NCBI GenBank assembly: GCA_020341815.1
Contig: CP070837.1
Location: 8,034 to 72,033 of the forward strand
Length of the DNA: 64,000 nucleotides
From: Candidatus Omnitrophota bacterium
Lineage (GTDB): Bacteria > Omnitrophota > Gorgyraeia > JAFGHF01
Direction of reading: 5' to 3'
Part shown: positions 7,471 to 26,304 of the stretch, in pieces
Layout of the letters: every line of letters starts with the position of its first letter
How positions within the stretch are numbered: position 1 is the stretch's first letter
Program-made: the position numbers and the translations under genes
The notes under the pieces: model-generated
What the model was told of the DNA's origin: nothing
What the model saw: the letters and a program-made list of their open reading frames with translations, nothing else
Database searches by the model: none

Positions 7471-8124
7471 TCAGTTAATTTCCAATTCCAGTTTGGATAT
7501 TAACTTATCCACTTCTTTTACAACGCGCGCAGGAAATACCTTGCTAATCTTAATCTCTTCTCTTATAGACTTAAGCAGAGACAAAAAGCGCCTGATTAAG
7601 CTCAGCTTTTTCTTCTGCCAGGCCTCCTGCGGCAGGAGCTCTTCCCGCTGCTTCATTAGTGCCGTAAGGTCCTTTTTCACCGAACGCTCATCTTTTCCGT
7701 TCTCAAAGACATTGGCTCTTAAGCGCTCGTAATCGCTTCTGTCCAGCTCCTTTTTGCTTTTGGCAAGGCGAAGGGCATTTATAGAATCGAGCGTAGGCAC
7801 CGAAGAGGCCTCCTCTCCATAATCATTCTTAAGATATGCCGACTCTTCCTGCTCAAGAAAATAATAAGACTTCAAGAGCTTAAGCGCTGTCTGCTTGCGT
7901 ATGCCGATCTCTTTTGCGGTATACTTATCAAAATTACTGTATCCCCAGTCCTTATATAGCTTATCCTTCCAGACCGAATAAAGAGTCTGGCCCAATTCTA
8001 TCCACGATGTCTTAAAATGCTTGGCATTTTTCAGAACCTGATGCCTCAATGAAGAATCATCCATATTTTCCATCAACTCTTCGATATTTCTTATCGATTT
8101 TGTCTTTACAGCACTCGTAGTCAT
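7471..8124 (-). CDS. hypothetical protein
   Basis: 217-aa ORF with no confident family assignment. Confidence 0.4.
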   Translation of the reverse strand: MTTSAVKTKSIRNIEELMENMDDSSLRHQVLKNAKHFKTSWIELGQTLYSVWKDKLYKDWGYSNFDKYTAKEIGIRKQTALKLLKSYYFLEQEESAYLKNDYGEEASSVPTLDSINALRLAKSKKELDRSDYERLRANVFENGKDERSVKKDLTALMKQREELLPQEAWQKKKLSLIRRFLSLLKSIREEIKISKVFPARVVKEVDKLISKLELEIN

Positions 8125-15695: not shown

Positions 15696-15743
15696 GAATC
15701 CGTAACCTCTTATAAATATTTATGTTACAAGAGTATGCGAATT

Positions 15744-15980
15744 GATGGCGTCCCCGGCACGATGCCTTCAATTCTGATAGATTATATCTTCCGTGGATAC
15801 GCATTGTTTACTCCCCGCTATTATACCAGAAAACGGCTGTCTGTAAAGGGCTATTTTGGCCTGCCTCTTCTCTGGATATACGACTATGCCCGCAACAAAT
15901 GTCCTGACAAACTCCTTCTTCCTCTCCGGCTCTCCATAGCCTAATATACCCTTGAAATCATCTAAATAAGACAACATCTT
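15744..15980. repeat. 237-bp direct repeat copy 2 (att core plus intact recombinase 3' end)
   Basis: See copy 1. Preceded by cgaatt, matching the cgaatc flank of the tRNA-Arg 3' end. Confidence 0.9.
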
Positions 15981-17405
15981 CCCTACCGCCTTATCTGCAT
16001 GGCCGTTATGGACCTTTGTTGTAAGACGGCCTTTCTCCTGATATAACTGCTGCCTTTGAAACACATATTTATTGATGATATTTACAGCGCTATCAAGCTC
16101 TATGCCCTTCTCAATGGCCTTTTTCCAGTTTTCTATCTTTAAGGATACCTCTTTTATCTCCTGATCTAACTCGCAGAGCCTCGTATCTGACCTATTTTCC
16201 GCAATTTTGACTATTTTAAGCAGTTCTTCTTTTAATTCCTTCCGCCAGGCAGAATTGTCTATCTTATTCTGTATGTAGCTTATAACAAACTCCTCAAGCT
16301 TATCTGCATCTATATCCCATCTAATACAGGCATTATTGCCATACATATTATAGCCGCCGCATCGATACCTTCTGGCTACTCTGTCTTTTCTTTTATAGCG
16401 GCTGCCCTGGAAATTAGAGCCGCACTTGCCGCATTTCATTATTCCGGTCAAAAGATAATTACTTCCCGGCCTTGTCCCGCAAGACAAGAACCTTCCGCCT
16501 ACAAAGGCCTGTCTTGTCCTGGCCTGAATCAATTCCCAAAGTTCCATGGAAATTATCGGCTGATGAGAGTTTTCTACGACAACCCACTTATCTTTAGGGT
16601 TATATTTGTGCTTGCCGTTTCGTTTATGTATATTTTCCCGGTTATACACTAAGGTTCCAATATAAACATCATTATGCAATATCCGCCAAAGGGATGATTT
16701 TGTCCACTTTTTGCCTCTTGGAGGCGCATAAGGACTTTGGTTAAGATATTCTACAATAGAGCGCACGGATAACCCCTGCTTGGCGAACATTACAAATATA
16801 GTCTTAATAACTTTAGCCTGCTGTTTATTTACGACAAGCTTTATTTTCTGGCCCTTTATGCCCTTTTCTTTGCCTTCCGGCAGAACCTCGCCTATTTTTC
16901 CGCCTTCAACAAGAGCTCTATTATAGCCGTAAGGGGGCCTCCCGCCCATCCAAAAGCCCTGTTTCGCATTATATATCTTACCTCTTAGCGTCTGCCGCCT
17001 GATATTCTTTAGATATTCTGAGGCCTCTGCGCTTTTCACAAAGTTGGTTATTGAAGTTCCTATACTGTCTTCTTTAAAACCTTCCGAGACAAAAACGACT
17101 TTCTTATCTGCTCTTTCAACTTCTACTTCCCAATAGACAGCTTCTTTGGGATTAGTGAACCTGCCCCATCTGGAGATATCATATACAAGTACATATTGAA
17201 AATCATCCTTTAATTTACAGCATTCTATCATTTTGCGAAACTGCGGGCGGCCTTCCACATTTTCGCCGCAGGCCTCTTCCGCAAAAAACTCTATCACTTT
17301 AATAGAATGCTGCTTTGCAAACAGCAATATCTTCTCTTTCTGCTGTTCTAAAGATGTCTCCTGTAAGTCAGTCGATTTTCTCAAGTAGGCAATGGCTTGC
17401 TTCAT
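15768..17405 (-). CDS. large serine recombinase (resolvase N-domain, recombinase domain, zinc ribbon, coiled coil)
   Basis: YLRKSTDLQ catalytic Ser motif, DISRWGR, GGRPPYGY, CGKCGSNF...RYRCGG zinc ribbon; 545 aa. Confidence 0.85.
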   Translation of the reverse strand: MKQAIAYLRKSTDLQETSLEQQKEKILLFAKQHSIKVIEFFAEEACGENVEGRPQFRKMIECCKLKDDFQYVLVYDISRWGRFTNPKEAVYWEVEVERADKKVVFVSEGFKEDSIGTSITNFVKSAEASEYLKNIRRQTLRGKIYNAKQGFWMGGRPPYGYNRALVEGGKIGEVLPEGKEKGIKGQKIKLVVNKQQAKVIKTIFVMFAKQGLSVRSIVEYLNQSPYAPPRGKKWTKSSLWRILHNDVYIGTLVYNRENIHKRNGKHKYNPKDKWVVVENSHQPIISMELWELIQARTRQAFVGGRFLSCGTRPGSNYLLTGIMKCGKCGSNFQGSRYKRKDRVARRYRCGGYNMYGNNACIRWDIDADKLEEFVISYIQNKIDNSAWRKELKEELLKIVKIAENRSDTRLCELDQEIKEVSLKIENWKKAIEKGIELDSAVNIINKYVFQRQQLYQEKGRLTTKVHNGHADKAVGKMLSYLDDFKGILGYGEPERKKEFVRTFVAGIVVYPEKRQAKIALYRQPFSGIIAGSKQCVSTEDIIYQN

Positions 17406-17545
17406 TAAGCTGTAACTTTCTCCCTTTCAATGACTACTCTTTTATCCTTCTGCTCTTCAAAATACTTGCTGAACATACACTCAATAATAAACTGGTTGAT
17501 TCTTTTTCCTGCTTCCGGCGGCTTCTTCTTTTCCTTGCTCTCCAT
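17405..17545 (-). CDS. 46-aa ORF overlapping the recombinase start (TAATG), possible recombination directionality / regulatory factor
   Basis: MESKEKKKPPEAGKRINQFIIECMFSKYFEEQKDKRVVIEREKVTA, AGGAG RBS upstream; below the ORF-track cutoff. Confidence 0.3.
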   Translation of the reverse strand: MESKEKKKPPEAGKRINQFIIECMFSKYFEEQKDKRVVIEREKVTA

Positions 17546-17562
17546 ACCAGGCTCTCCTTCCT

Positions 17563-17769
17563 TTACCTAACCAGATCCTTGCAACTAACGCCAAGGGCTT
17601 TGGCAAGCTCAAAAAGAGTTGTCAAATACATATTGACCCTGCCGTGTTCCACCCGGCTTATATATCCCCGGCTCAACTTGGCCTTTTTAGCCAGCTGCGC
17701 CTGTGTCAGCTTCTTCTCTGAGCGGTAATAGCGTATATTGTCCCCTATCTTCCTTCTCAGCTCTGACAT
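17563..17769 (-). CDS. XRE-family HTH transcriptional regulator
   Basis: LTQAQLAKKAKLSRGYISRVEHG HTH motif; start trimmed to M18. Confidence 0.75.
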   Translation of the reverse strand: MSELRRKIGDNIRYYRSEKKLTQAQLAKKAKLSRGYISRVEHGRVNMYLTTLFELAKALGVSCKDLVR

Positions 17770-17826
17770 AATACCTTTCCTCCTTTCATCAGTAATTACA
17801 TATGTAATGTTTGAGCACAAAAAAAT

Positions 17827-18021
17827 TTACCAGGTAATTCCCAGCGCCTTTATCTCCTTTATAGTCCTCTCCTGTTTTGGCACTGCCATCCCTAATTCCC
17901 ACCGCGCAATTGTAGTAACAGTTACAACTAATTTTCGCGCAAGTTCTTGTTGCGTCAAATCGCGTTCCTCTCTGTATCTTTTTATTGCCCGGCTAAATTT
18001 TTGCTTATCAATGGTCGTCAT
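17827..18021 (-). CDS. XRE-family HTH transcriptional regulator
   Basis: LTQQELARKLVVTVTTIARWELG HTH motif; 64 aa. Confidence 0.75.
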   Translation of the reverse strand: MTTIDKQKFSRAIKRYREERDLTQQELARKLVVTVTTIARWELGMAVPKQERTIKEIKALGITW

Positions 18022-18109
18022 CTTCTTCCTTTAATTCTTAAAGATAGCTTATCATATGTAATTACCCTTGTCAAGTGGTTTTTTTAAAGAATTTCTTTGG
18101 GAGAAAGCT

Positions 18110-18811
18110 TTATTTACGAGGACAAATAGAGCATGGAGATCTATTTGAAATACACGTATAAACGTTTATGCCATCAACTCTATGAAAATCTGCATCAATA
18201 ACAATAAAGTCATTTATGCCAGCTTCTTGCGCAATAGCAATATTAAGAGCATCTGCTGGTAAGATATTATACAGTTCTACAATATTGCACATCTTTTCGG
18301 TGACAGTCTCTGTTGTCTTCGTTTGCAGATGATCTGCTTCTAAAACGGCAATTGGAATAGCCATAATCCTCTCATAATAATATTTTAGTAAATGGTAATA
18401 CTTAGCAATTAATTCGTGATGATCTTTTAATAATTCGGATAATGGATTTTTTCTTCCTTTATCTTTATATTCTTGAATATGCCTATCATAAGGGGTAGTA
18501 AAGAAATCTACAGATTCTACTTTATTTTTCAAAATATAAAAAAAGAACTCATTCAAAACATAATTATCTGTAAATAAACAAATTTCTTCAGATTTCGCTT
18601 TTGTTTCTAAAAGAGTCAAAAAATCACTGCAAATAATATTTATTCTGGAAAAAATTTTCTCTGGAACAGGAAAAAAAGAATTGATGAGAAAAGAAGTATC
18701 TATAAAAAAGAAATCTGGAAAATTAAATCCAGATTTTTTAGTATTATTAAATTTATATATCGTCGCTGGCATAGAAGTTTTTTTTGTTATCTTTTTCAAA
18801 ATATTTCTCAT
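18110..18811 (-). CDS. long PIN-like nuclease domain protein (about 220 aa), third gene of a coupled operon
   Basis: FFFIDTSFLIN (first Asp) ... TDNYVLNEF ... DALNIAIAQEAGINDFIVIDADF (distal Asp pair), with a roughly 90-aa insertion between. Alternative start M14 at 18772. Confidence 0.5.
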   Translation of the reverse strand: MRNILKKITKKTSMPATIYKFNNTKKSGFNFPDFFFIDTSFLINSFFPVPEKIFSRINIICSDFLTLLETKAKSEEICLFTDNYVLNEFFFYILKNKVESVDFFTTPYDRHIQEYKDKGRKNPLSELLKDHHELIAKYYHLLKYYYERIMAIPIAVLEADHLQTKTTETVTEKMCNIVELYNILPADALNIAIAQEAGINDFIVIDADFHRVDGINVYTCISNRSPCSICPRK

Positions 18812-19100
18812 TATCTAAGGTAACTTGATCGGGGAAGGTAATATTCGAAATCTCACCTTTCTTTGAAGCCAATATTTTAGCTTTTGCCAAAGCTAATTTA
18901 TAGAATGATTTTAATTTATTCTTTTTTTCTTCTTTTAATTCGCTAAAAATTAAATTATCTGTTACTTTCTTTAAATAGTGCTCCAGGATTCTTTTCTTAT
19001 TAGTAAACCGCATTTCCTCTTGGCTAATCAAGACAACATCTTTATCATCCTCGATATGCCAAATTTCTAGGCCGATATCTTTCTTGAGTATTTTATGCAT
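18753..19100 (-). CDS. 115-aa hypothetical protein, middle gene of the operon
   Basis: Start at the ATG embedded in AATGCATAA (overlaps the stop of the upstream gene); the track's longer N-terminus would overlap the upstream ORF by 178 nt and is rejected. Confidence 0.45.
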   Translation of the reverse strand: MHKILKKDIGLEIWHIEDDKDVVLISQEEMRFTNKKRILEHYLKKVTDNLIFSELKEEKKNKLKSFYKLALAKAKILASKKGEISNITFPDQVTLDNEKYFEKDNKKNFYASDDI

Positions 19101-19701
19101 TTTTATTTTCTTTTTGTTTGATAAAAGCTGCCGAAAAATTCTTTGATTTTTTAATGGTATCCTTAAGATATCCAAAGCTATAACTATTAATGTGCTCCGA
19201 AAGAACTTGAAGAAAGATATCATCTGCCTTACAACGATGACATTTCTGAATATCCAAAATAATAGAATCAACTTCTCTATGCTCTGGAAAAGAAATTCTC
19301 ATACCATTCAAAATTACTTTTCCAAAGCCACTTCTTTTTTCTTCAAAAACCACTGGCAGAGCAGGATCAGTTTCAAAATCTTTCCTTGAATAATGAAATG
19401 TCATTCTTGAAAAAATAGTTATTTTTTCTGTAAAGTTTTTCTCGAAAAAGTCTGAAGTTTTTTTGAAATTCTCTATATCTTTTTTTTCGAAGCTAGGATA
19501 ATCAGGAATAGTAACGGTAAGTTGATAAGCAGTAGTAGAATTTGGTTTTTGTTCAGGCAATTCAATCAGACTAAAAAGTTCTTTCTGTACATGGATAAAG
19601 TTAGAGTATTCTTTATAAAGTCTTTTTTCTATAGCCAATTCAGTAACTAACTTGGCATAATAGAAATGCCTATTTTTTATTAAATTTATAAACTCTTGCA
19701 T
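19093..19701 (-). CDS. 202-aa hypothetical protein, first gene of the operon
   Basis: No recognisable motif; 146-bp AT-rich promoter region upstream. Confidence 0.45.
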   Translation of the reverse strand: MQEFINLIKNRHFYYAKLVTELAIEKRLYKEYSNFIHVQKELFSLIELPEQKPNSTTAYQLTVTIPDYPSFEKKDIENFKKTSDFFEKNFTEKITIFSRMTFHYSRKDFETDPALPVVFEEKRSGFGKVILNGMRISFPEHREVDSIILDIQKCHRCKADDIFLQVLSEHINSYSFGYLKDTIKKSKNFSAAFIKQKENKNA

Positions 19702-19846
19702 AGTTTGTGATATCTAATTGTAATATTTATTAACAAAAGTTATTTTAGCACAAATTTCGATAAAAGTCAATTATATTTATAATTGCCCAAATTGTCCAGA
19801 AACATAACTTATTTCCTCTTAAGCAGTTGCAACAATTCACCAATTC

Positions 19847-20638
19847 TCAAAAACCAACTTTGTATTTTTTCAGAAATAAATCTAATTCTTGTTTCTTTCC
19901 TAGTTCAAATAAATCATTATATACAGATAGGAATGTATGCATGTATTCAATTGTTAAAATCATATTTGTTATTATATTGCAATATGATGGGTCAGAAGAA
20001 AAATATGTATATTCTTCAGTACGCTTCACTTCTTGGATGATTCCAAGCATTGAGGGGTGTGAAATTAAGCAGCACATACGATATACAAGATTATATTCAT
20101 TTGACATACCAACTACTTCGGCCATTCTTTCAACGGATTTCCCCGACCAAGTAGAAAGACCATTTTTAACTTTAAAATTTACTTTATATTCTTTAACTTT
20201 AGCCAAAATTTCGGGTTCTTTTGATAGAATTGATTTCTGTAACTTTTTGCTCTCAACTTGTTTATTTGTTTTCCAATATTTCAATTGCTTTCTCATCAGT
20301 AGCCATTTGTATTCTTCAAATCTTTGAGCAAGCTCATTAGGATTTTTATTCAAAATTATATATTTTGTAGTAATCAAATTTTCTAATAGTGATCTCATAA
20401 GTATTAGGGCGCTCATACCATGACCTTCTTGGCAGAGCAAATCAATAGATTTATAATGTCTAATTGATGTATTAAATAGATATAGAAAGGTGTTCTTATA
20501 TTTTGGTATTCTGCTTGGTCGAAAGTTATTTGATGATTGATTAAAGACGATAAGTAATGTGTCTATTAAATGATATAAATTATCGGCGCATTCAAATAGT
20601 TCTTTATTTTTTTTAAGATTTTCATGTTTAAAAGCCAT
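19847..20638 (-). CDS. hypothetical protein with HEPN-like Rx6H motif (RMCCLISHPS), candidate abortive-infection-type RNase
   Basis: 263 aa; the R-x6-H-x-S motif lies in a predicted helical C-terminal region. Confidence 0.35.
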   Translation of the reverse strand: MAFKHENLKKNKELFECADNLYHLIDTLLIVFNQSSNNFRPSRIPKYKNTFLYLFNTSIRHYKSIDLLCQEGHGMSALILMRSLLENLITTKYIILNKNPNELAQRFEEYKWLLMRKQLKYWKTNKQVESKKLQKSILSKEPEILAKVKEYKVNFKVKNGLSTWSGKSVERMAEVVGMSNEYNLVYRMCCLISHPSMLGIIQEVKRTEEYTYFSSDPSYCNIITNMILTIEYMHTFLSVYNDLFELGKKQELDLFLKKYKVGF

Positions 20639-20818
20639 ATTTTTATATTCACTTCATATAATGCTTGAGATAATCTGTCTTTTTCGCATAGCTAAAAAAG
20701 TTAGATTGAGCGATTTGATAAAGGTTTAATTTATAAATATTTCACATAAAATCAGGTGACAATACCTATTTAGTAATTAAGTATTGTCCCTCGATTTGTG
20801 TCATTTTCGCTCTCTTGT

Positions 20819-21157
20819 TTAAGGTAAAGCTACTGGTACGCTAAACTTAATTCGGCTTACTGAGGAATTCTCTTTGCGGGATTCACCTTGACTGCCAAGT
20901 CCGACTGATCCAACAAAAACACCAATGCCACCTTTTGTGCCCTGTCGTTCCACTGCAGTTATTGCTACATCAAATTCAACTATAGTTACAGTTTTATGGC
21001 CGCTCATTTTCATCAGGCCTTGTTTCACAATATCTTTTGTATCCCCCCAAACACCTGGATTAATGTCGGCACCGGATGTGGATTCAGATTCCTTAGCATT
21101 TTTAATGCCTGTAATTAACTCTTCTAAGGTTTTTGACACAAAGTCACTTAAATTCAT
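20819..21157 (-). CDS. small protein resembling the Trypco2 (trypsin-co-occurring domain 2) fold
   Basis: N-terminal amphipathic helix (LEELITGIKNA) followed by Gly-rich beta hairpins VEFDVAITAVERQGTKGGIGVFVGSVGLGSQGES...IKFSVPV. Only gene in the window with a perfect AGGAGG SD at -7. Confidence 0.35.
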   Translation of the reverse strand: MNLSDFVSKTLEELITGIKNAKESESTSGADINPGVWGDTKDIVKQGLMKMSGHKTVTIVEFDVAITAVERQGTKGGIGVFVGSVGLGSQGESRKENSSVSRIKFSVPVALP

Positions 21158-21289
21158 ATGGATCCTCCTATTGAAATCTGGAAATCTGAAATCTAAAAAT
21201 CCGTATGCTTTAGATTACGGGAACATAATATTTATTTATTAGATTTTAAAGCTAATTAAGTGTTGATCCCTAGAATTTTCCGATTGGTT

Positions 21290-22381
21290 TTATTTTCCAG
21301 ATTTTGTTCGGTTATCTTGTTTGCACAACATTTGACAATTTTCTGCAACAGTCTTTCCACCTTCATGCCATGGCTTTATATGATCAGCTTCCATTCCTTC
21401 TATCTCAAAGCGTTTCTTGCATTTTACGCATTTACCTTTTTGCCTTTCATATGCTTCTCTCTTTTGTTTATCTGTGAATGCTCTAATATTCAAAAATTTC
21501 TCATTTCGGGTTAAAATATATGGATAAATTCCGGATTTCTTCGTTACTTCGTCATCTAGCATTAATTCTTTGATTTCAGTTTCCAATTTATTAGAGTTCA
21601 GTCTCTTCTTTTTGAACTCGTTATGCAGCCCGCCCCATTGCACACCACTCATTTCTCGGCGATAATTTATAAAAGTCTTTCGCACCCACTCAATCACATC
21701 TTGAAAGTATTGCCATAATTCTTCAGCATTCTGACTATGCTGATGTTTGGCCATATAATCTTCTATCTTGCCATTGTTAATCCACGAAAGTGCAGTTTCT
21801 AAATACTCTTGTCGTATTGGCGATCCACTTACTAATTGTCCCCCATCATTTGCTAGAAGGTATGCTGCACAATTTGATTTGCTAAATTTCAATTTAGCGT
21901 CGCTCAACCATGGCCCAGTATAAACTGCATTGCGTATTTCTTGATCAGTCAATTTTACACCGGCAATGTTGATAATCCTAAACCAGTCTAACCGCTCTTT
22001 GTCTGTGCCTTCGCAGAAGTAAATCATTAGTTCATAATCCAAAATTTTATCCTGCTCCTCTTTGGTTAGATTATGAAAAAAGCAGTTATTCAGTGAAAAA
22101 TCGTTATAAACATATTGTCCTATACTAATAGTGCGCTGTTGGCCGTCCAGCATTTCGTAGCCGCCATCTTCTCTGATCATCCAATACATCACATTCAGCG
22201 GAAAGCTGTTTTTGATAGTTTCTATCACGGCATTACGTTGCTTTTCCTTGTATACAAACTCACGCTGATATTTTGGACGAATATTCAATTTGCCGTCATA
22301 AGCCGTCACGCCTTCTTCAGCACTATCTTTATAATCGGCTATTACCTTACGAATTGGAATTTTATGTAGATCGATTTTCAT
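21290..22381 (-). CDS. DUF262 (ParB/Srx-like, DGQQR) domain protein with C-terminal HNH endonuclease, GmrSD/SspE-like
   Basis: MLDGQQRTISI motif; C-terminal CVKCKK...EADHIKPWHEGGKTVAENCQMLCKQDN HNH motif. Confidence 0.75.
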   Translation of the reverse strand: MKIDLHKIPIRKVIADYKDSAEEGVTAYDGKLNIRPKYQREFVYKEKQRNAVIETIKNSFPLNVMYWMIREDGGYEMLDGQQRTISIGQYVYNDFSLNNCFFHNLTKEEQDKILDYELMIYFCEGTDKERLDWFRIINIAGVKLTDQEIRNAVYTGPWLSDAKLKFSKSNCAAYLLANDGGQLVSGSPIRQEYLETALSWINNGKIEDYMAKHQHSQNAEELWQYFQDVIEWVRKTFINYRREMSGVQWGGLHNEFKKKRLNSNKLETEIKELMLDDEVTKKSGIYPYILTRNEKFLNIRAFTDKQKREAYERQKGKCVKCKKRFEIEGMEADHIKPWHEGGKTVAENCQMLCKQDNRTKSGK

Positions 22382-22382
22382 A

Positions 22383-23435
22383 TTATTTTTTCACTTTCTT
22401 GTTTTTAATTAAAATACGAGCATATATTTCTTGACCATTTATCGTAAATCTCTTTCCATAATTCGGATTATCTTTGACATACCTATCAATACCAATAATT
22501 TCAAACTGCTCGGGGTTATATTTATCAACAAATGTAATTGGAACACCCATTACACCTTTATAATCCATTGGGATATCAATGTATCTATTTATATTAATAG
22601 CATTGTAGCTATCATATTTAGGATAATCCTCTGGGCTATATTTTTTATATAAAGTTAATTCTTCATGACGTTTTGCAGTATCCAAATTTGTAAACCACAG
22701 AATACGACCCATACTTAAATATTTCACACCGTTTTCAATCTTCTTCCTTGATTCTGTTGGTATGTCATAATCCATGGGTACCTGGAACCACTTCGTGCCA
22801 CCGTTATCATAACCAAGCCACAATTTATTTTCTTTGATATAGCCGAAAATTTCTTTATAAGAAATAGCGTTCTGATCACCAAGAATCAAAAACTTCTTGT
22901 TATATTCCATTAGCTGTGCAACATATTCCCGAAACAGAGAAAAAGGCGGATTGGTTACAACTATGTCGGCTTGCTTGAGTAATTCTATACACTCATCGCT
23001 GCGGAAATCGCCATCACCTTCAAGGGGAGATGAAGTATTAACATCATGTCTTAGCAACCACTCTACATCTGTAATATCAACAGCGCCGTCGGCATTAACA
23101 TCTGAAATCTCCCTTATTTCAATTTTAAATGGCTCTTTGCCTTTCGGCTTTAACCCTTCCATTTCAAACAACAACAGCTGACCGCCCACAATTGGCGACT
23201 TAATATAGCTTGTGGTAATAAGCTTCTTTAGTTTTAGTGGTTTAAAATTAGCAGCGAAATATTTAAAAAAATTACTCTCAAAGGGATCATCGCAATTACA
23301 GTAAACAACCTTGCCACGAAATTGTTCTTTGTAGTGTCTTAGCTCTTTTTCAATATCAACGAGCTGGGTATAAAACTCATCTTTTTTTGCTTTGCTTGCC
23401 TTATGTAAGTTTTTATTTAAAGATTTAGTTCCCAT
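22383..23435 (-). CDS. N6-adenine DNA methyltransferase (FYT motif X-like ... NPPF motif IV) with embedded EF-hand/dockerin-like Ca-binding loop
   Basis: DEFYTQLV near the N-terminus, IVVTNPPFSLF catalytic motif, DVNADGAVDITD 12-residue DxNxDGxxDxxD loop; stop overlaps the start of the DUF262-HNH gene. Confidence 0.6.
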   Translation of the reverse strand: MGTKSLNKNLHKASKAKKDEFYTQLVDIEKELRHYKEQFRGKVVYCNCDDPFESNFFKYFAANFKPLKLKKLITTSYIKSPIVGGQLLLFEMEGLKPKGKEPFKIEIREISDVNADGAVDITDVEWLLRHDVNTSSPLEGDGDFRSDECIELLKQADIVVTNPPFSLFREYVAQLMEYNKKFLILGDQNAISYKEIFGYIKENKLWLGYDNGGTKWFQVPMDYDIPTESRKKIENGVKYLSMGRILWFTNLDTAKRHEELTLYKKYSPEDYPKYDSYNAININRYIDIPMDYKGVMGVPITFVDKYNPEQFEIIGIDRYVKDNPNYGKRFTINGQEIYARILIKNKKVKK

Positions 23436-23659
23436 ATTTTTATTAGGATTTGGTCCTAATTACCTAATGTTACTTTCTTCCTACTAATTCATCCAAGCTA
23501 ACCCCAAAAGCATCGGCAATCTTAACCATGGTTTGAATTGTGGGTTGCTTTGCGATACTTTGTTCGATTATGTATTTTACTTGCCTTTGTCAAGAAATTA
23601 GTATTGCGTCCCCTGATCTGCATGATTCTGCGATTCTGTAGAGGAATATCCCGTTTATC

Positions 23660-24973
23660 TTATTGCTCAATCTTACAACCCTCCTTTGACACTCTTAACC
23701 ATCCATATTTCTTTGTAAAGATATCGAGTACATCATTATTTGTAATTTCTCCCTGTTCTTTCAGATAGAGCAGATTTAATAGATCAATTGTCCTCATAAT
23801 TAACACCTTCTTTTCAACTGCTAACTTTACTTGCTCTGAATTTACTTCGCGCAATTTGTCTGCAATACTATTTGCTGATTTTATAAATGAATTCACAATT
23901 AATATAGTTGGAAATTTAGACGATTTCCCTCTGCGACCTCTATGTGAGTCTGCTTGATAAACATTAGGACTTTTAATATTTTCGTTTACTCCCTTTATTT
24001 CCAAAAGAGCTATCTCTTTATTATCTTTGTCAAGTATTGCTCTGTCTTCTATGTATTCGTCTTTTTTAGTATCTATGTTAAAGCTAAACCCTTCTTTCAA
24101 TACATCTACCACACTATCAACTAATGGATTATCACTATAACAAAGGCATCTTTTATATTTTTTATACACCTCTTTTCCTGCAAGTAGTGCCTCTATCTTA
24201 TTCTGTAATGCTACTTCTTTTTTCAAGATAGCTTCTTCTTCTTGAAACTTATAGTCGTCTACCCAAGATGGTATTTCTTGAACTAATTTCTTTGAAGTAG
24301 CCACTAAAGATGAAACGAGTTCCTTAAAAAAATGATCTATTTCGTCTATTGATGGTATCCGACACGGGATAATATAATGGCTGTCAAACAAAATGAAGCC
24401 CGCTAGAGTACGATAGCCTGCATCACAAATCTTTTTTACATACGGTTCAAAGAATGAATTATAGGAAAATTTTACCTTTGCTATGCCATAGTCTTTCAAG
24501 AATTGCAGAAATTCCCCTTTATAAGTCTTTGTAATTCCACAATCCCCACCTAAAGGATACCTATAGAAACCATCATAATTTAGAAGCAGTTTGCATAAGC
24601 CAGTCTGTTTCAGATTTAAGTCATCCTGACCTCTTATATAATCAACAAATTCTGAATGGATGAGGAAGCAAATAAATCCTCCTCTCTCGCGTAATTGTAA
24701 AGTTTGATTTCTTCTTTTTACTAATTCATCTCTCCGATATCGCAAATATTTTTGTGCATAGAGGCCATCTGTTGATTCAACACTTTCAAATGTAGACTGG
24801 AATAAAACTACGCCATTATAATCTTGAAACCTTTTAGCTGTTTCGAAAGGTTCAAAATCTATTTCAAAGTTTTTGGTTTTGATGGTTGACTGCGGAATAC
24901 TTAAGTCGAAACGCTCAATACCATATACAAGAATACGTGGTAAGGTAGAACCTTGAATTTGTTTAGCATCCAT
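23660..24973 (-). CDS. hypothetical protein with C-terminal PD-(D/E)xK nuclease-like core, candidate restriction endonuclease
   Basis: ...EDRAILDKDNKEIALLEIKG (D ... ExK spacing typical of the restriction-endonuclease fold); N-terminal 300 aa unassigned. Confidence 0.4.
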   Translation of the reverse strand: MDAKQIQGSTLPRILVYGIERFDLSIPQSTIKTKNFEIDFEPFETAKRFQDYNGVVLFQSTFESVESTDGLYAQKYLRYRRDELVKRRNQTLQLRERGGFICFLIHSEFVDYIRGQDDLNLKQTGLCKLLLNYDGFYRYPLGGDCGITKTYKGEFLQFLKDYGIAKVKFSYNSFFEPYVKKICDAGYRTLAGFILFDSHYIIPCRIPSIDEIDHFFKELVSSLVATSKKLVQEIPSWVDDYKFQEEEAILKKEVALQNKIEALLAGKEVYKKYKRCLCYSDNPLVDSVVDVLKEGFSFNIDTKKDEYIEDRAILDKDNKEIALLEIKGVNENIKSPNVYQADSHRGRRGKSSKFPTILIVNSFIKSANSIADKLREVNSEQVKLAVEKKVLIMRTIDLLNLLYLKEQGEITNNDVLDIFTKKYGWLRVSKEGCKIEQ

Positions 24974-25094
24974 TTATTTCACCTCATCTCTATGAAAACT
25001 ACAGGAAATTCTTTGGCCAGCAAAATCACATTGACTTTTATTTTACCCCTTTTTGTTGACTATAGCAAGGTAAAAGTACTTGGACAATGGAGAG

Positions 25095-25334
25095 TCATTT
25101 GGCCTTTTTAGACCAATGAAATAGGGCTATTTTGATGGAAATTGGGATTGGTTTGCCCTTTCGGGGCCTGCAATGACGTCTGAGGCGTAAAATCCAGCCC
25201 TTTGGAAACCAGATTTCCCTGCCATCAAACTCGATTAGGATGGCTTTGGGGGTTTCTTTGATGAGAAGGGCGTTTATCCAGACATATTCCGGGGGATTTA
25301 AGGCATATTTGAGCCAAAATTTGAGGCTAAACAT
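25095..25334 (-). CDS. small hypothetical protein
   Basis: 79 aa, overlaps the upstream wHTH gene by 8 nt. Confidence 0.35.
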   Translation of the reverse strand: MFSLKFWLKYALNPPEYVWINALLIKETPKAILIEFDGREIWFPKGWILRLRRHCRPRKGKPIPISIKIALFHWSKKAK

Positions 25335-25815
25335 AGGTTTTTCTTGCTTTTCTCAGGTTTCTAAGGCCTTCTTTTAGCCAATCTGGGGCAATATAAGGCT
25401 TTTCGCAAAGGGGTTTTGGCTGTTCAGTAAATTCGGATCTCCTTTTTCTGATCTTCTTAGTGGTAATTTCTTTATGGGCAGTGGCGCGGCGCTGCTTGAG
25501 CTCTATTCTGTCAACCGGAAGATCCTGGAGCTCTACCCATATCTTTGGCTTTTTGTTCTTGTGGCCGGAAACCATCCCCTTTTCAGTAGCAATCAGGCCC
25601 ATATCTTTGAGCTCTTGGCGTGCTTTGTATATTGTCGCATTGGCCAGGCCGGTGGCTTCTTTTAATGCTTTTGCTCCATAGCAGCTTCTGCCCTCTGCCC
25701 CACCTGCTAAGACATAAAGAATGTAGAGCTTGGCGGCTGAGGCGGACATTTCCTTTAAGAATCCTAATTCTTTAAGGTCCCTGTCTATCCAGCCAAATGG
25801 GTAAAGTGTTCTCAT
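25327..25815 (-). CDS. winged-helix DNA-binding protein (phage/plasmid replication-organiser or regulator type)
   Basis: LYILYVLAGGAEG...ATIYKARQELKDMGLI wHTH followed by a basic tail. Confidence 0.45.
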   Translation of the reverse strand: MRTLYPFGWIDRDLKELGFLKEMSASAAKLYILYVLAGGAEGRSCYGAKALKEATGLANATIYKARQELKDMGLIATEKGMVSGHKNKKPKIWVELQDLPVDRIELKQRRATAHKEITTKKIRKRRSEFTEQPKPLCEKPYIAPDWLKEGLRNLRKARKTYV

Positions 25816-25865
25816 AGTTTAAATATTCTATTTCAATATCTATTTAATACTTATATAGAGAGTTC

Positions 25866-25915
25866 AAATTTTGAACTATGCCCTGCTTAAAGCTGAGTTC
25901 AAAAATTGAACTATG
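25866..25915. promoter_or_regulatory. two copies of the palindromic operator GTTCAAAnnTTTGAAC-TATGC
   Basis: agttcaaattttgaactatgc and agttcaaaaattgaactatgc 24 bp apart, upstream of the wHTH gene and next to the attL side. Confidence 0.4.
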
Positions 25916-26033
25916 CTTTAAAATAAAAAAAGGGAAGCTACCCTGCACCGTATGGTACAGAACAACTTCCCTTAATTTTGGTAACCTTTTATAACTGTTT
26001 AAGTTATAAAAGTGTCCGAATCGATGGCGTCCC

Positions 26034-26304
26034 CGGTGTGATTCGAACACACGACCCTCTGCTTAGCATCCAGCATCAAGTTTCCCTGACCACTCCGAAT
26101 ACTCGGAGCTTGCTGGCCGGACTTTCTCTTGGGCGTCTCAGCCCCACCGCGTAAAGTCTCTACACTTCCCCAAAACTTTTAGGGTAGCTCGGTATTACCC
26201 AACTTGGGCGTCTACCGAATTAGCGGTGTCCACTTCATAAGTTTATTTCCCTATGAAGGCTCCTTATTGAAGGCAGATGCTCTATCCAGCTGAGCTACGG
26301 GGAC
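26034..26304 (-). tRNA. tRNA-Arg(UCU) interrupted by a 194-nt intron in the anticodon loop (exons 26270-26304 and 26034-26075)
   Basis: 5' half GTCCCCGTAGCTCAGCTGGATAGAGCATCTGCCTT and 3' half CTAAGCAGAGGGTCGTGTGTTCGAATCACACCGGGGACGCCA. They pair perfectly in acceptor (GTCCCCG/CGGGGAC) and anticodon (TCTGC/GCAGA) stems. The D-arm is that of E. coli tRNA-Arg. Confidence 0.75.
26076..26269 (-). ncRNA. group I (IC3-like) self-splicing intron candidate inside tRNA-Arg
   Basis: Contains GAAGUGUAGAGACUUUACGCGGUGGGG, closely resembling the P7/J6-7 core GAAGGUGUAGAGACUAGACGGCACCC of the Azoarcus tRNA-Ile intron as I remember it. 5' exon ends in U, intron ends in G. Possible P1 CUU/GAG. Confidence 0.55.

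Follow-up and report, generated by a model that had tools for sequence, protein, structure and literature searches.

Which of three neighbouring genes in the genome of Candidatus Omnitrophota bacterium belong together, and how would an N6-adenine DNA methyltransferase (MTase) coexist with a nuclease of the DUF262-HNH type at its side? The locus lies on contig CP070837.1 (assembly GCA_020341815.1), of which the 64,000 nucleotides (nt) between positions 8,034 and 72,033, hereafter the window, were analysed. Three co-directional minus-strand open reading frames (ORFs) are found there: 23660-24973 (437 amino acids, aa), 22383-23435 (350 aa) and 21290-22381 (363 aa). Each of them has many full-length homologues and is therefore a real gene, not an ORF that arose by chance. 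The initial annotation had read them as a single restriction module made of a candidate PD-(D/E)xK nuclease, the MTase and the DUF262-HNH protein. Our results favour a smaller unit. Quite probably, the last two genes form a self-contained restriction-modification (R-M) cassette, with restriction carried out by the DUF262-HNH protein, given the linkage of both genes across genomes, their occurrence on plasmids and in a phage, and the full-length match of the nuclease to a Type II restriction endonuclease (REase) profile.

The methylase-nuclease pair

The features of the pair are as follows.

22383-23435, minus strand: EcoRI-family (gamma-class) N6-adenine DNA MTase of 350 aa, predicted modification component (PF13651, PADLOC MTase_II, NPPF motif, identity to M.EcoRI)
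21290-22381, minus strand: DUF262 (ParB/Srx-like, DGQQR) plus zinc-finger HNH nuclease of 363 aa, probable restriction component (PF03235, PF01844, PADLOC REase_II)
22382-22385, minus strand: MTase stop codon TAA and 1-nt spacer ahead of the nuclease ATG (sequence AAAAAATAATATGAAA)

The assignment of the 350-aa protein to the N6-adenine MTases, already made in the initial annotation, was borne out by PF13651, which covered residues 9-346 (1e-138; 462.8 bits against a cut-off of 26.4), and by the catalytic NPPF motif at residues 161-164 (in VVTNPPFS). The PADLOC profile MTase_II matched it at 1.2e-126. From end to end, its identity to M.EcoRI amounted to 49% (tblastn) or 53% (MAFFT). The comparator was the MTase of E. 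coli plasmid pMB5823_5, taken as genuine M.EcoRI because the adjoining gene is annotated 'type-2 restriction enzyme EcoRI'. M.EcoRI displayed a median identity of 51% to 73 DUF262-linked MTases (see below), which among themselves displayed a median of 63% and a minimum of 49%. It is about as near to these MTases as their most divergent members are to each other.

The domain composition of the 363-aa protein was also as first described. Its DUF262 part matched GmrSD_N/DUF262 (PF03235, 4.6e-17), with LDGQQRT at residues 78-84, and its C-terminus a classical zinc-finger HNH domain (PF01844, 7e-12); no match to DUF1524 (PF07510) was detected in the protein with Pfam. The possibility of a decayed pseudogene, raised at the outset, was dispelled by an alignment of 37 homologues. 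The LDGQQRT motif and the DH...N...N motif with its four cysteines were intact and their residues invariant or nearly so (D79, Q81, Q82, R83, D333, H334, N348, N357, C318, C321, C349 and C353 being strictly invariant), so the gene is not decayed. Over its entire length (residues 1-363 on profile positions 1-372 of 372), the protein matched the PADLOC model REase_II (PDLC03418, 8.5e-130), named there a "Type II restriction enzyme" profile. PADLOC profiles of this kind probably derive from REBASE sequences, but where this model came from could not be verified; for Type II REases, Oliveira et al. (2014) relied on BLAST, not on hidden Markov models. Neither a helicase nor an ATPase domain was found in the protein with Pfam, NCBIfam or PADLOC, and the SF2 motifs of Type III Res proteins were missing. 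When the nuclease-family profile was compared with the PDB, matches were confined to HNH domains (4H9D, 2.7e-4; McrA, 6GHC); the BrxU and SspE structures were not retrieved, and no solved structure matched the DUF262 part.

Both genes had been described as overlapping. The junction reads AAA TAA T ATG, which leaves a 1-nt spacer between the MTase stop and the nuclease start, and the nuclease is probably translationally coupled to the MTase.

Conservation of the pairing

Relatives of the nuclease number in the thousands (8000 candidates were scored, and identity ranged from 82 to 93% among the 120 matches listed). A species scan based on one genome per species recorded a DUF262-HNH relative in at least 579 species, spanning Patescibacteria, Omnitrophota, Gammaproteobacteria, Bacteroidota, Planctomycetota, Elusimicrobiota and others. 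Linkage was counted in the best 80 of these loci, ranked by nuclease similarity and 79-91% identical to the window nuclease. An EcoRI-family MTase was located directly upstream, on the same strand, in 78 of the 80, all from different species. One of the two exceptions ends at a contig edge, and the other (L027) displayed a DnaJ-domain gene upstream. The view that DUF262-HNH enzymes are normally not paired with an MTase is thus correct for GmrSD, BrxU and SspE, but fails for this subfamily.

Spacing was compared in those 72 loci whose MTase ORF is complete. The 1-nt spacer was the commonest form (38 of 72) and overlaps of 1, 4 or 11 nt occurred in 8, while an insertion of 350-1900 nt parted the MTase from the nuclease in 19 (L023-L095). 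Among the proteins encoded by these inserts are a recurrent one of the T5orf172 type (about 200 aa, GIY-YIG-like), RhuM-family and DUF2130 proteins and an ATPase (AAA_15/AAA_21). Embedded cargo genes seem to accumulate preferentially at this junction.

The pair also occurred in a Flavobacterium phage and on plasmids, including conjugative ones, with nuclease identities down to about 36%. A 7.5-kb Ligilactobacillus plasmid has four annotated genes, namely the pair plus those for a MerR regulator and Rep. Ligilactobacillus agilis La3 (pLa3_1), Macrococcoides canis, Aeromonas caviae Aero21 and Variovorax sp. SRS16 are examples of cultured carriers. As in Type II systems, the MTase and the REase are encoded by separate adjacent genes (1-nt spacer in the window; 78 of 80 loci) and the REase matches a Type II REase profile (PDLC03418). 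On sequence grounds, the pair fits the operational outline of Type II R-M, and PADLOC files the nuclease accordingly.

A marked asymmetry was observed between the two proteins. In the 73 sequences with both genes, drawn from the 80 loci chosen by nuclease similarity, median pairwise identity was 82.6% for the nuclease and 63.0% for the MTase, and the nuclease was the more conserved one in 98.6% of pairs. Synonymous sites were saturated in both genes (pS about 0.78), so the high identity of the nuclease reflects purifying selection over long divergence and not recent spread. Both genes were under purifying selection, with a dN of 0.11 for the nuclease and 0.29 for the MTase in clade L019-L098, i.e. 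an evolution about 2.6 times slower for the former. Type II REases are usually too divergent to align well (PMC4176335); the pattern is reversed here. The higher conservation of the nuclease is confined to the similarity-selected clade with 79-91% nuclease identity and is not claimed for the whole family: at the deeper divergence represented by plasmids, nuclease and MTase were alike, both about 45-60% identical to the window copies. Within clade L019-L098, the pairwise identities of both proteins were nearly uncorrelated (r = 0.13), which hints at MTase alleles being shuffled against a conserved nuclease.

Recognition site and proposed mode of action

In the mechanism that we propose, the EcoRI-family MTase would methylate an adenine in a site of the host DNA, and the DUF262-HNH protein would be the restriction endonuclease, its HNH domain cutting DNA devoid of this methylation. 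Judging from the linkage of the two genes and their M-then-R order, the mark set by the MTase most likely shields self DNA from the nuclease. A nuclease dependent on N6-methyladenine (m6A) would kill the host when co-expressed with an m6A MTase. Of the three-component system initially put forward, in which methylation was to guard self, this protective role and the conserved pairing are retained, whereas the third component is not (see below). Analogy with BrxU, GmrSD and SspE further suggests that cleavage may be gated by nucleoside triphosphate (NTP) binding or hydrolysis at the DGQQR pocket. Since this pocket binds NTP in BrxU and SspE (PMC10952713) and is invariant here, nucleotide binding probably matters for the nuclease, which would be atypical of a Type II enzyme.

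The best guess for the recognition site is GAATTC or a related sequence with an AATT core, because the MTase is about 50% identical to M.EcoRI. Other EcoRI-family MTases may differ from this specificity; Campylobacter homologues of the M.EcoRI family methylate RAATTY. The avoidance of palindromes was considered as another route to the site. None was consistently depleted when pooled over the 80 related loci, and GATC, GTAC and CTAG, which are depleted in the window, were rejected as a host-wide signal not seen inside the island that carries the pair (described below). GATC occurred 84 times in the whole window against 242 expected (ratio 0.35, z about -10), with a ratio of 0.28 outside the island; the ratios of GTAC and CTAG were about 0.45 in the window. 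The GATC depletion points to a host lineage long exposed to GATC-targeting restriction, unconnected with the island.

Several observations speak against the proposed mechanism or against the cassette itself. GAATTC was present 10 times in the window for 17.2 expected, a mild and non-significant depletion (ratio 0.58), and its observed/expected ratio was 0.89 when pooled over the 80 related loci. GmrSD and BrxU attack modified DNA, a polarity opposite to the one proposed here. The activity of SspE, for its part, relies on self modification (PMC10952713). At locus L027, an intact DUF262-HNH copy (984-2090, 85% identical) stands without an adjacent EcoRI-family MTase; the nuclease may be solitary there, unless its MTase is encoded at a distance in the genome. 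The AlphaFold2 model of the nuclease was poor (pLDDT 57.9), since the homologues supplied were all more than 82% identical, and brought no structural support for a DNA-reading domain. Finally, no biochemical or genetic data on the DUF262-HNH/MTase family were found in the literature.

The 437-aa neighbour, the regulator remnant and the island

The surroundings of the pair comprise the following features.

23470-23670, minus strand: decayed XRE-type helix-turn-helix (HTH), controller-like gene upstream of the MTase (in-frame TGA, scrambled N-terminal half)
23660-24973, minus strand: 437-aa neighbour outside the R-M pair; alpha/beta domain at the N-terminus, then a coiled coil, then a PD-(D/E)xK-like domain at the C-terminus (invariant D310, E325, K327)
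15702-26036, no strand: low-GC integrated island of 10.3 kb carrying all the above genes (56-nt imperfect direct repeats)

No match to the 437-aa protein was found in Pfam, PADLOC, NCBIfam or PHROG. A profile search retrieved about 2000 cluster representatives at E <= 1e-3 (385 at E <= 1e-30), which were nearly all 420-460 aa long and compose an unannotated family with a single architecture and no Pfam model. The D...ExK motif noticed from the start proved to be real: D310, E325 and K327 were invariant across 30 homologues (32-60% identity), together with G328, Q340, D342, H344 and R345. An invariant cysteine (C102) was also recorded in the N-terminal domain. In the confident AlphaFold2 model (pLDDT 90.6), two alpha/beta domains, one at each terminus, are joined by a long helical stretch. 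With Foldseek, the N-terminal domain weakly resembled class-I glutamine-amidotransferase-like folds (E 6e-4, low TM-score), and the C-terminal one, weakly as well, the FokI cleavage domain (prob 0.95, E 0.1, TM about 0.2) and EcoO109I (E 0.12).

None of the 80 pair-bearing loci displayed a homologue of this protein within 10 kb (tblastn, E <= 1e-3). Conversely, no EcoRI-family MTase or DUF262 gene appeared in five contexts of 437-aa homologues, which were found beside recombinases and a PLD-family gene, beside a primase/terminase element, or among housekeeping genes. The family was met at mobile-element edges. The protein is probably a stand-alone PD-(D/E)xK nuclease borne on mobile elements and, judged by its genomic context, the gene is a bystander, simply the next cargo gene on the island and unrelated to the R-M pair. 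These counts also dispose of the other arrangement first envisaged, a Type II R-M system made of the PD-(D/E)xK protein and the MTase, to which the DUF262-HNH protein would be an extra effector.

The grouping of all three genes into one module is further contradicted by the 224 nt that separate the 437-aa gene from the MTase, a gap that holds the broken XRE-type HTH gene. A scan of this gap for sigma-70-like promoters and terminators revealed none, with counts that were the same as in shuffled sequence and are uninformative on co-transcription. The frame of the HTH remnant contains an in-frame TGA and its N-terminal half is no longer HTH-like, while the C-terminal half matches HTH_3 profile positions 34-55 (8e-5) and the translation ends with ...QPTIQTMVKIADAFGVSLDELVGRK before the stop codon. 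Intact HTH_3 genes occurred upstream in 4-5 relatives; in L083, L088, L092 and L095, a 69-aa gene of this type (1.9e-14) ends 2-5 nt before the MTase start. Since these are intact and the remnant is decayed, the window cassette is a copy whose upstream regulator was lost. An intact small HTH gene directly upstream, as in R-M systems with a controller (C) protein, is lacking, only the remnant being present.

Imperfect direct repeats of 56 nt (15702-15757 and 25981-26036; family D1, 84% identity) mark the two limits of the island. Its GC content is 0.28-0.36, compared with 0.42-0.48 outside, and a large serine recombinase is encoded at one end (15768-17405). The R-M cassette and the 437-aa gene are two independent cargo items of this 10.3-kb integrative element. 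Other cargo consists of two XRE HTH genes, a PIN-like protein, a DUF5677 protein and several unknown ORFs. The DUF5677 protein (match of 1.1e-25) is encoded at 19847-20638 and the PIN-like one (233 aa; weak C-terminal PIN match of 3e-4, below the gathering score) at 18110-18811, both on the minus strand.

The insertion point of the island is the 3' end of a tRNA gene, and the right-hand repeat overlaps with it. This gene (26025-26304, minus strand) has its anticodon loop interrupted by a 203-nt intervening sequence. It was missed by standard ARAGORN and found in the intron-permitting mode, where it was assigned to Ser-GCT, whereas an Arg-UCU anticodon loop would result from splicing after U and after G. 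With Rfam, the intervening sequence matched neither a group I intron nor any other family.

Alternative explanations

A role for the 437-aa protein, be it in a three-component system or in a PD-(D/E)xK Type II R-M system with DUF262-HNH as accessory effector, is hardly credible. The genes are indeed co-directional and adjacent, read-through is possible across a gap in which no promoter or terminator was found, and the protein joins an invariant D...ExK motif to a C-terminal fold that is FokI-like in its model. Yet a decayed regulator gene lies between it and the pair, and its homologues and those of the pair were never found together (0 of 80 and 0 of 5 contexts). Very improbable, too, is a GmrSD-type Type IV (modification-dependent) enzyme lying beside an MTase that is an orphan or aimed at another site. 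Such an enzyme would agree with the N-terminal DUF262 domain common to GmrSD and BrxU, and with the one relative whose nuclease has no adjacent MTase, but it leaves unexplained why 78 of 80 loci, along with relatives only about 36% identical, have the MTase tightly linked to the nuclease. It is further opposed by the lack of a DUF1524 domain and by the fact that an m6A-dependent nuclease co-transcribed with an m6A MTase would be self-destructive.

An SspE-like logic, in which the DUF262 domain would sense self m6A and license NTPase-driven nicking or cleavage of unmarked invading DNA, has a precedent in SspABCD-SspE, where DUF262 senses self modification and triggers NTPase activity and nicking (PMC10952713). 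The invariant DGQQR NTP-binding motif and an unusually strong constraint on the nuclease, fitting a multi-step sensor-effector, are in line with this logic. We nonetheless hold it to be rather unlikely, as the C-terminal nuclease is a classical HNH domain instead of the DUF1524 of SspE, the family profile detected neither SspE nor BrxU among solved structures, PADLOC places the nuclease with Type II REases, and ordinary R-M systems typically show the same simple M-then-R order and travel on small plasmids. The two-gene cassette with cleavage blocked by methylation remains the preferred explanation. Whether this cassette represents an unnamed distinct class, modification-blocked and with a ParB/Srx NTPase switch gating the HNH domain, and as such neither Type II nor helicase-driven Type I/III, is a tentative idea that we consider possible but doubtful. 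If true, an NTP-gated multi-step mechanism would explain why, across the 80 loci examined, the nucleases have stayed ~80-90% identical in the face of saturated synonymous divergence and the MTases have drifted to ~50-60%.

Comparison with known systems

With the EcoRI R-M system, the pair has in common a full-length homologue of the MTase, down to the M.EcoRI motifs DEFYTQ, CDDP, NPPFSLFREY and GVMGVPITF. The nuclease is of another kind, R.EcoRI being a 277-aa PD-(D/E)xK enzyme and the present one a 363-aa DUF262-HNH protein, and the gene order is R then M for EcoRI but M then R here. Type II enzymes of the HNH type, such as KpnI, Hpy99I and PacI, possess a beta-beta-alpha-Me HNH domain with zinc cysteines and a separate MTase; unlike the nuclease described here, they are devoid of a ParB/Srx-like NTP-binding domain. 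The best named PADLOC defence matches of the DUF262 domain were Menshen NsnA (2.3e-25) and PD-T4-2_A (1.6e-11), but this likeness was limited to nuclease residues 29-159 and no NsnB/C-like or OLD-family partner was present.

A pairing of an EcoRI-family MTase with a DUF262-HNH protein was not found described in the full-text literature searched, nor was a named enzyme. A review of DUF262 defence systems covers GmrSD, BrxU, SspE, Menshen, Dazbog and PD-T4-2, and not this pairing (PMC10952713), which is also not among the systems given in the GmrSD phylogenomics paper (PMC4619093) and in the Menshen paper. The locus is a further copy of a very common R-M family, catalogued in databases and apparently uncharacterised in biochemical terms. 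Taken by itself, and with the three-component reading dropped, it is an unremarkable example borne on a small integrative island. Members of the family abound in bacteria of the candidate phyla radiation (CPR) and in Omnitrophota, whose defence systems have received little study. Should the nuclease need NTP, the line that separates Type II from the NTP-dependent restriction types would become less sharp.

Like GmrSD and BrxU, the nuclease unites in one polypeptide an N-terminal DUF262 domain with DGQQR and, behind it, a His-Me-finger nuclease domain (PMC4619093). It differs from them by a zinc-finger HNH domain (PF01844) in place of DUF1524, by a much shorter length and by its consistent MTase linkage, which implies modification-blocked rather than modification-dependent cleavage. 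Compared with GmrSD, BrxU and SspE together, the DUF262 domain with DGQQR was found, DUF1524 was absent and a cognate MTase was present; as the BrxU and SspE structures were not retrieved either, the pair is, by its domain composition, outside these three. The nearest precedent is SspABCD-SspE, which likewise combines a module modifying self DNA with a DUF262-nuclease effector (PMC10952713). There, the modification is phosphorothioation by SspABCD and the effector carries DUF1524, as opposed to a predicted m6A set by a single MTase and an HNH domain here; no Ssp component was matched by PADLOC among the ten island proteins scanned. The GmrS-like DUF262 domain, familiar from enzymes for which modified DNA is a target or a signal, thus also fronts a nuclease partnered with an M.EcoRI-like MTase.

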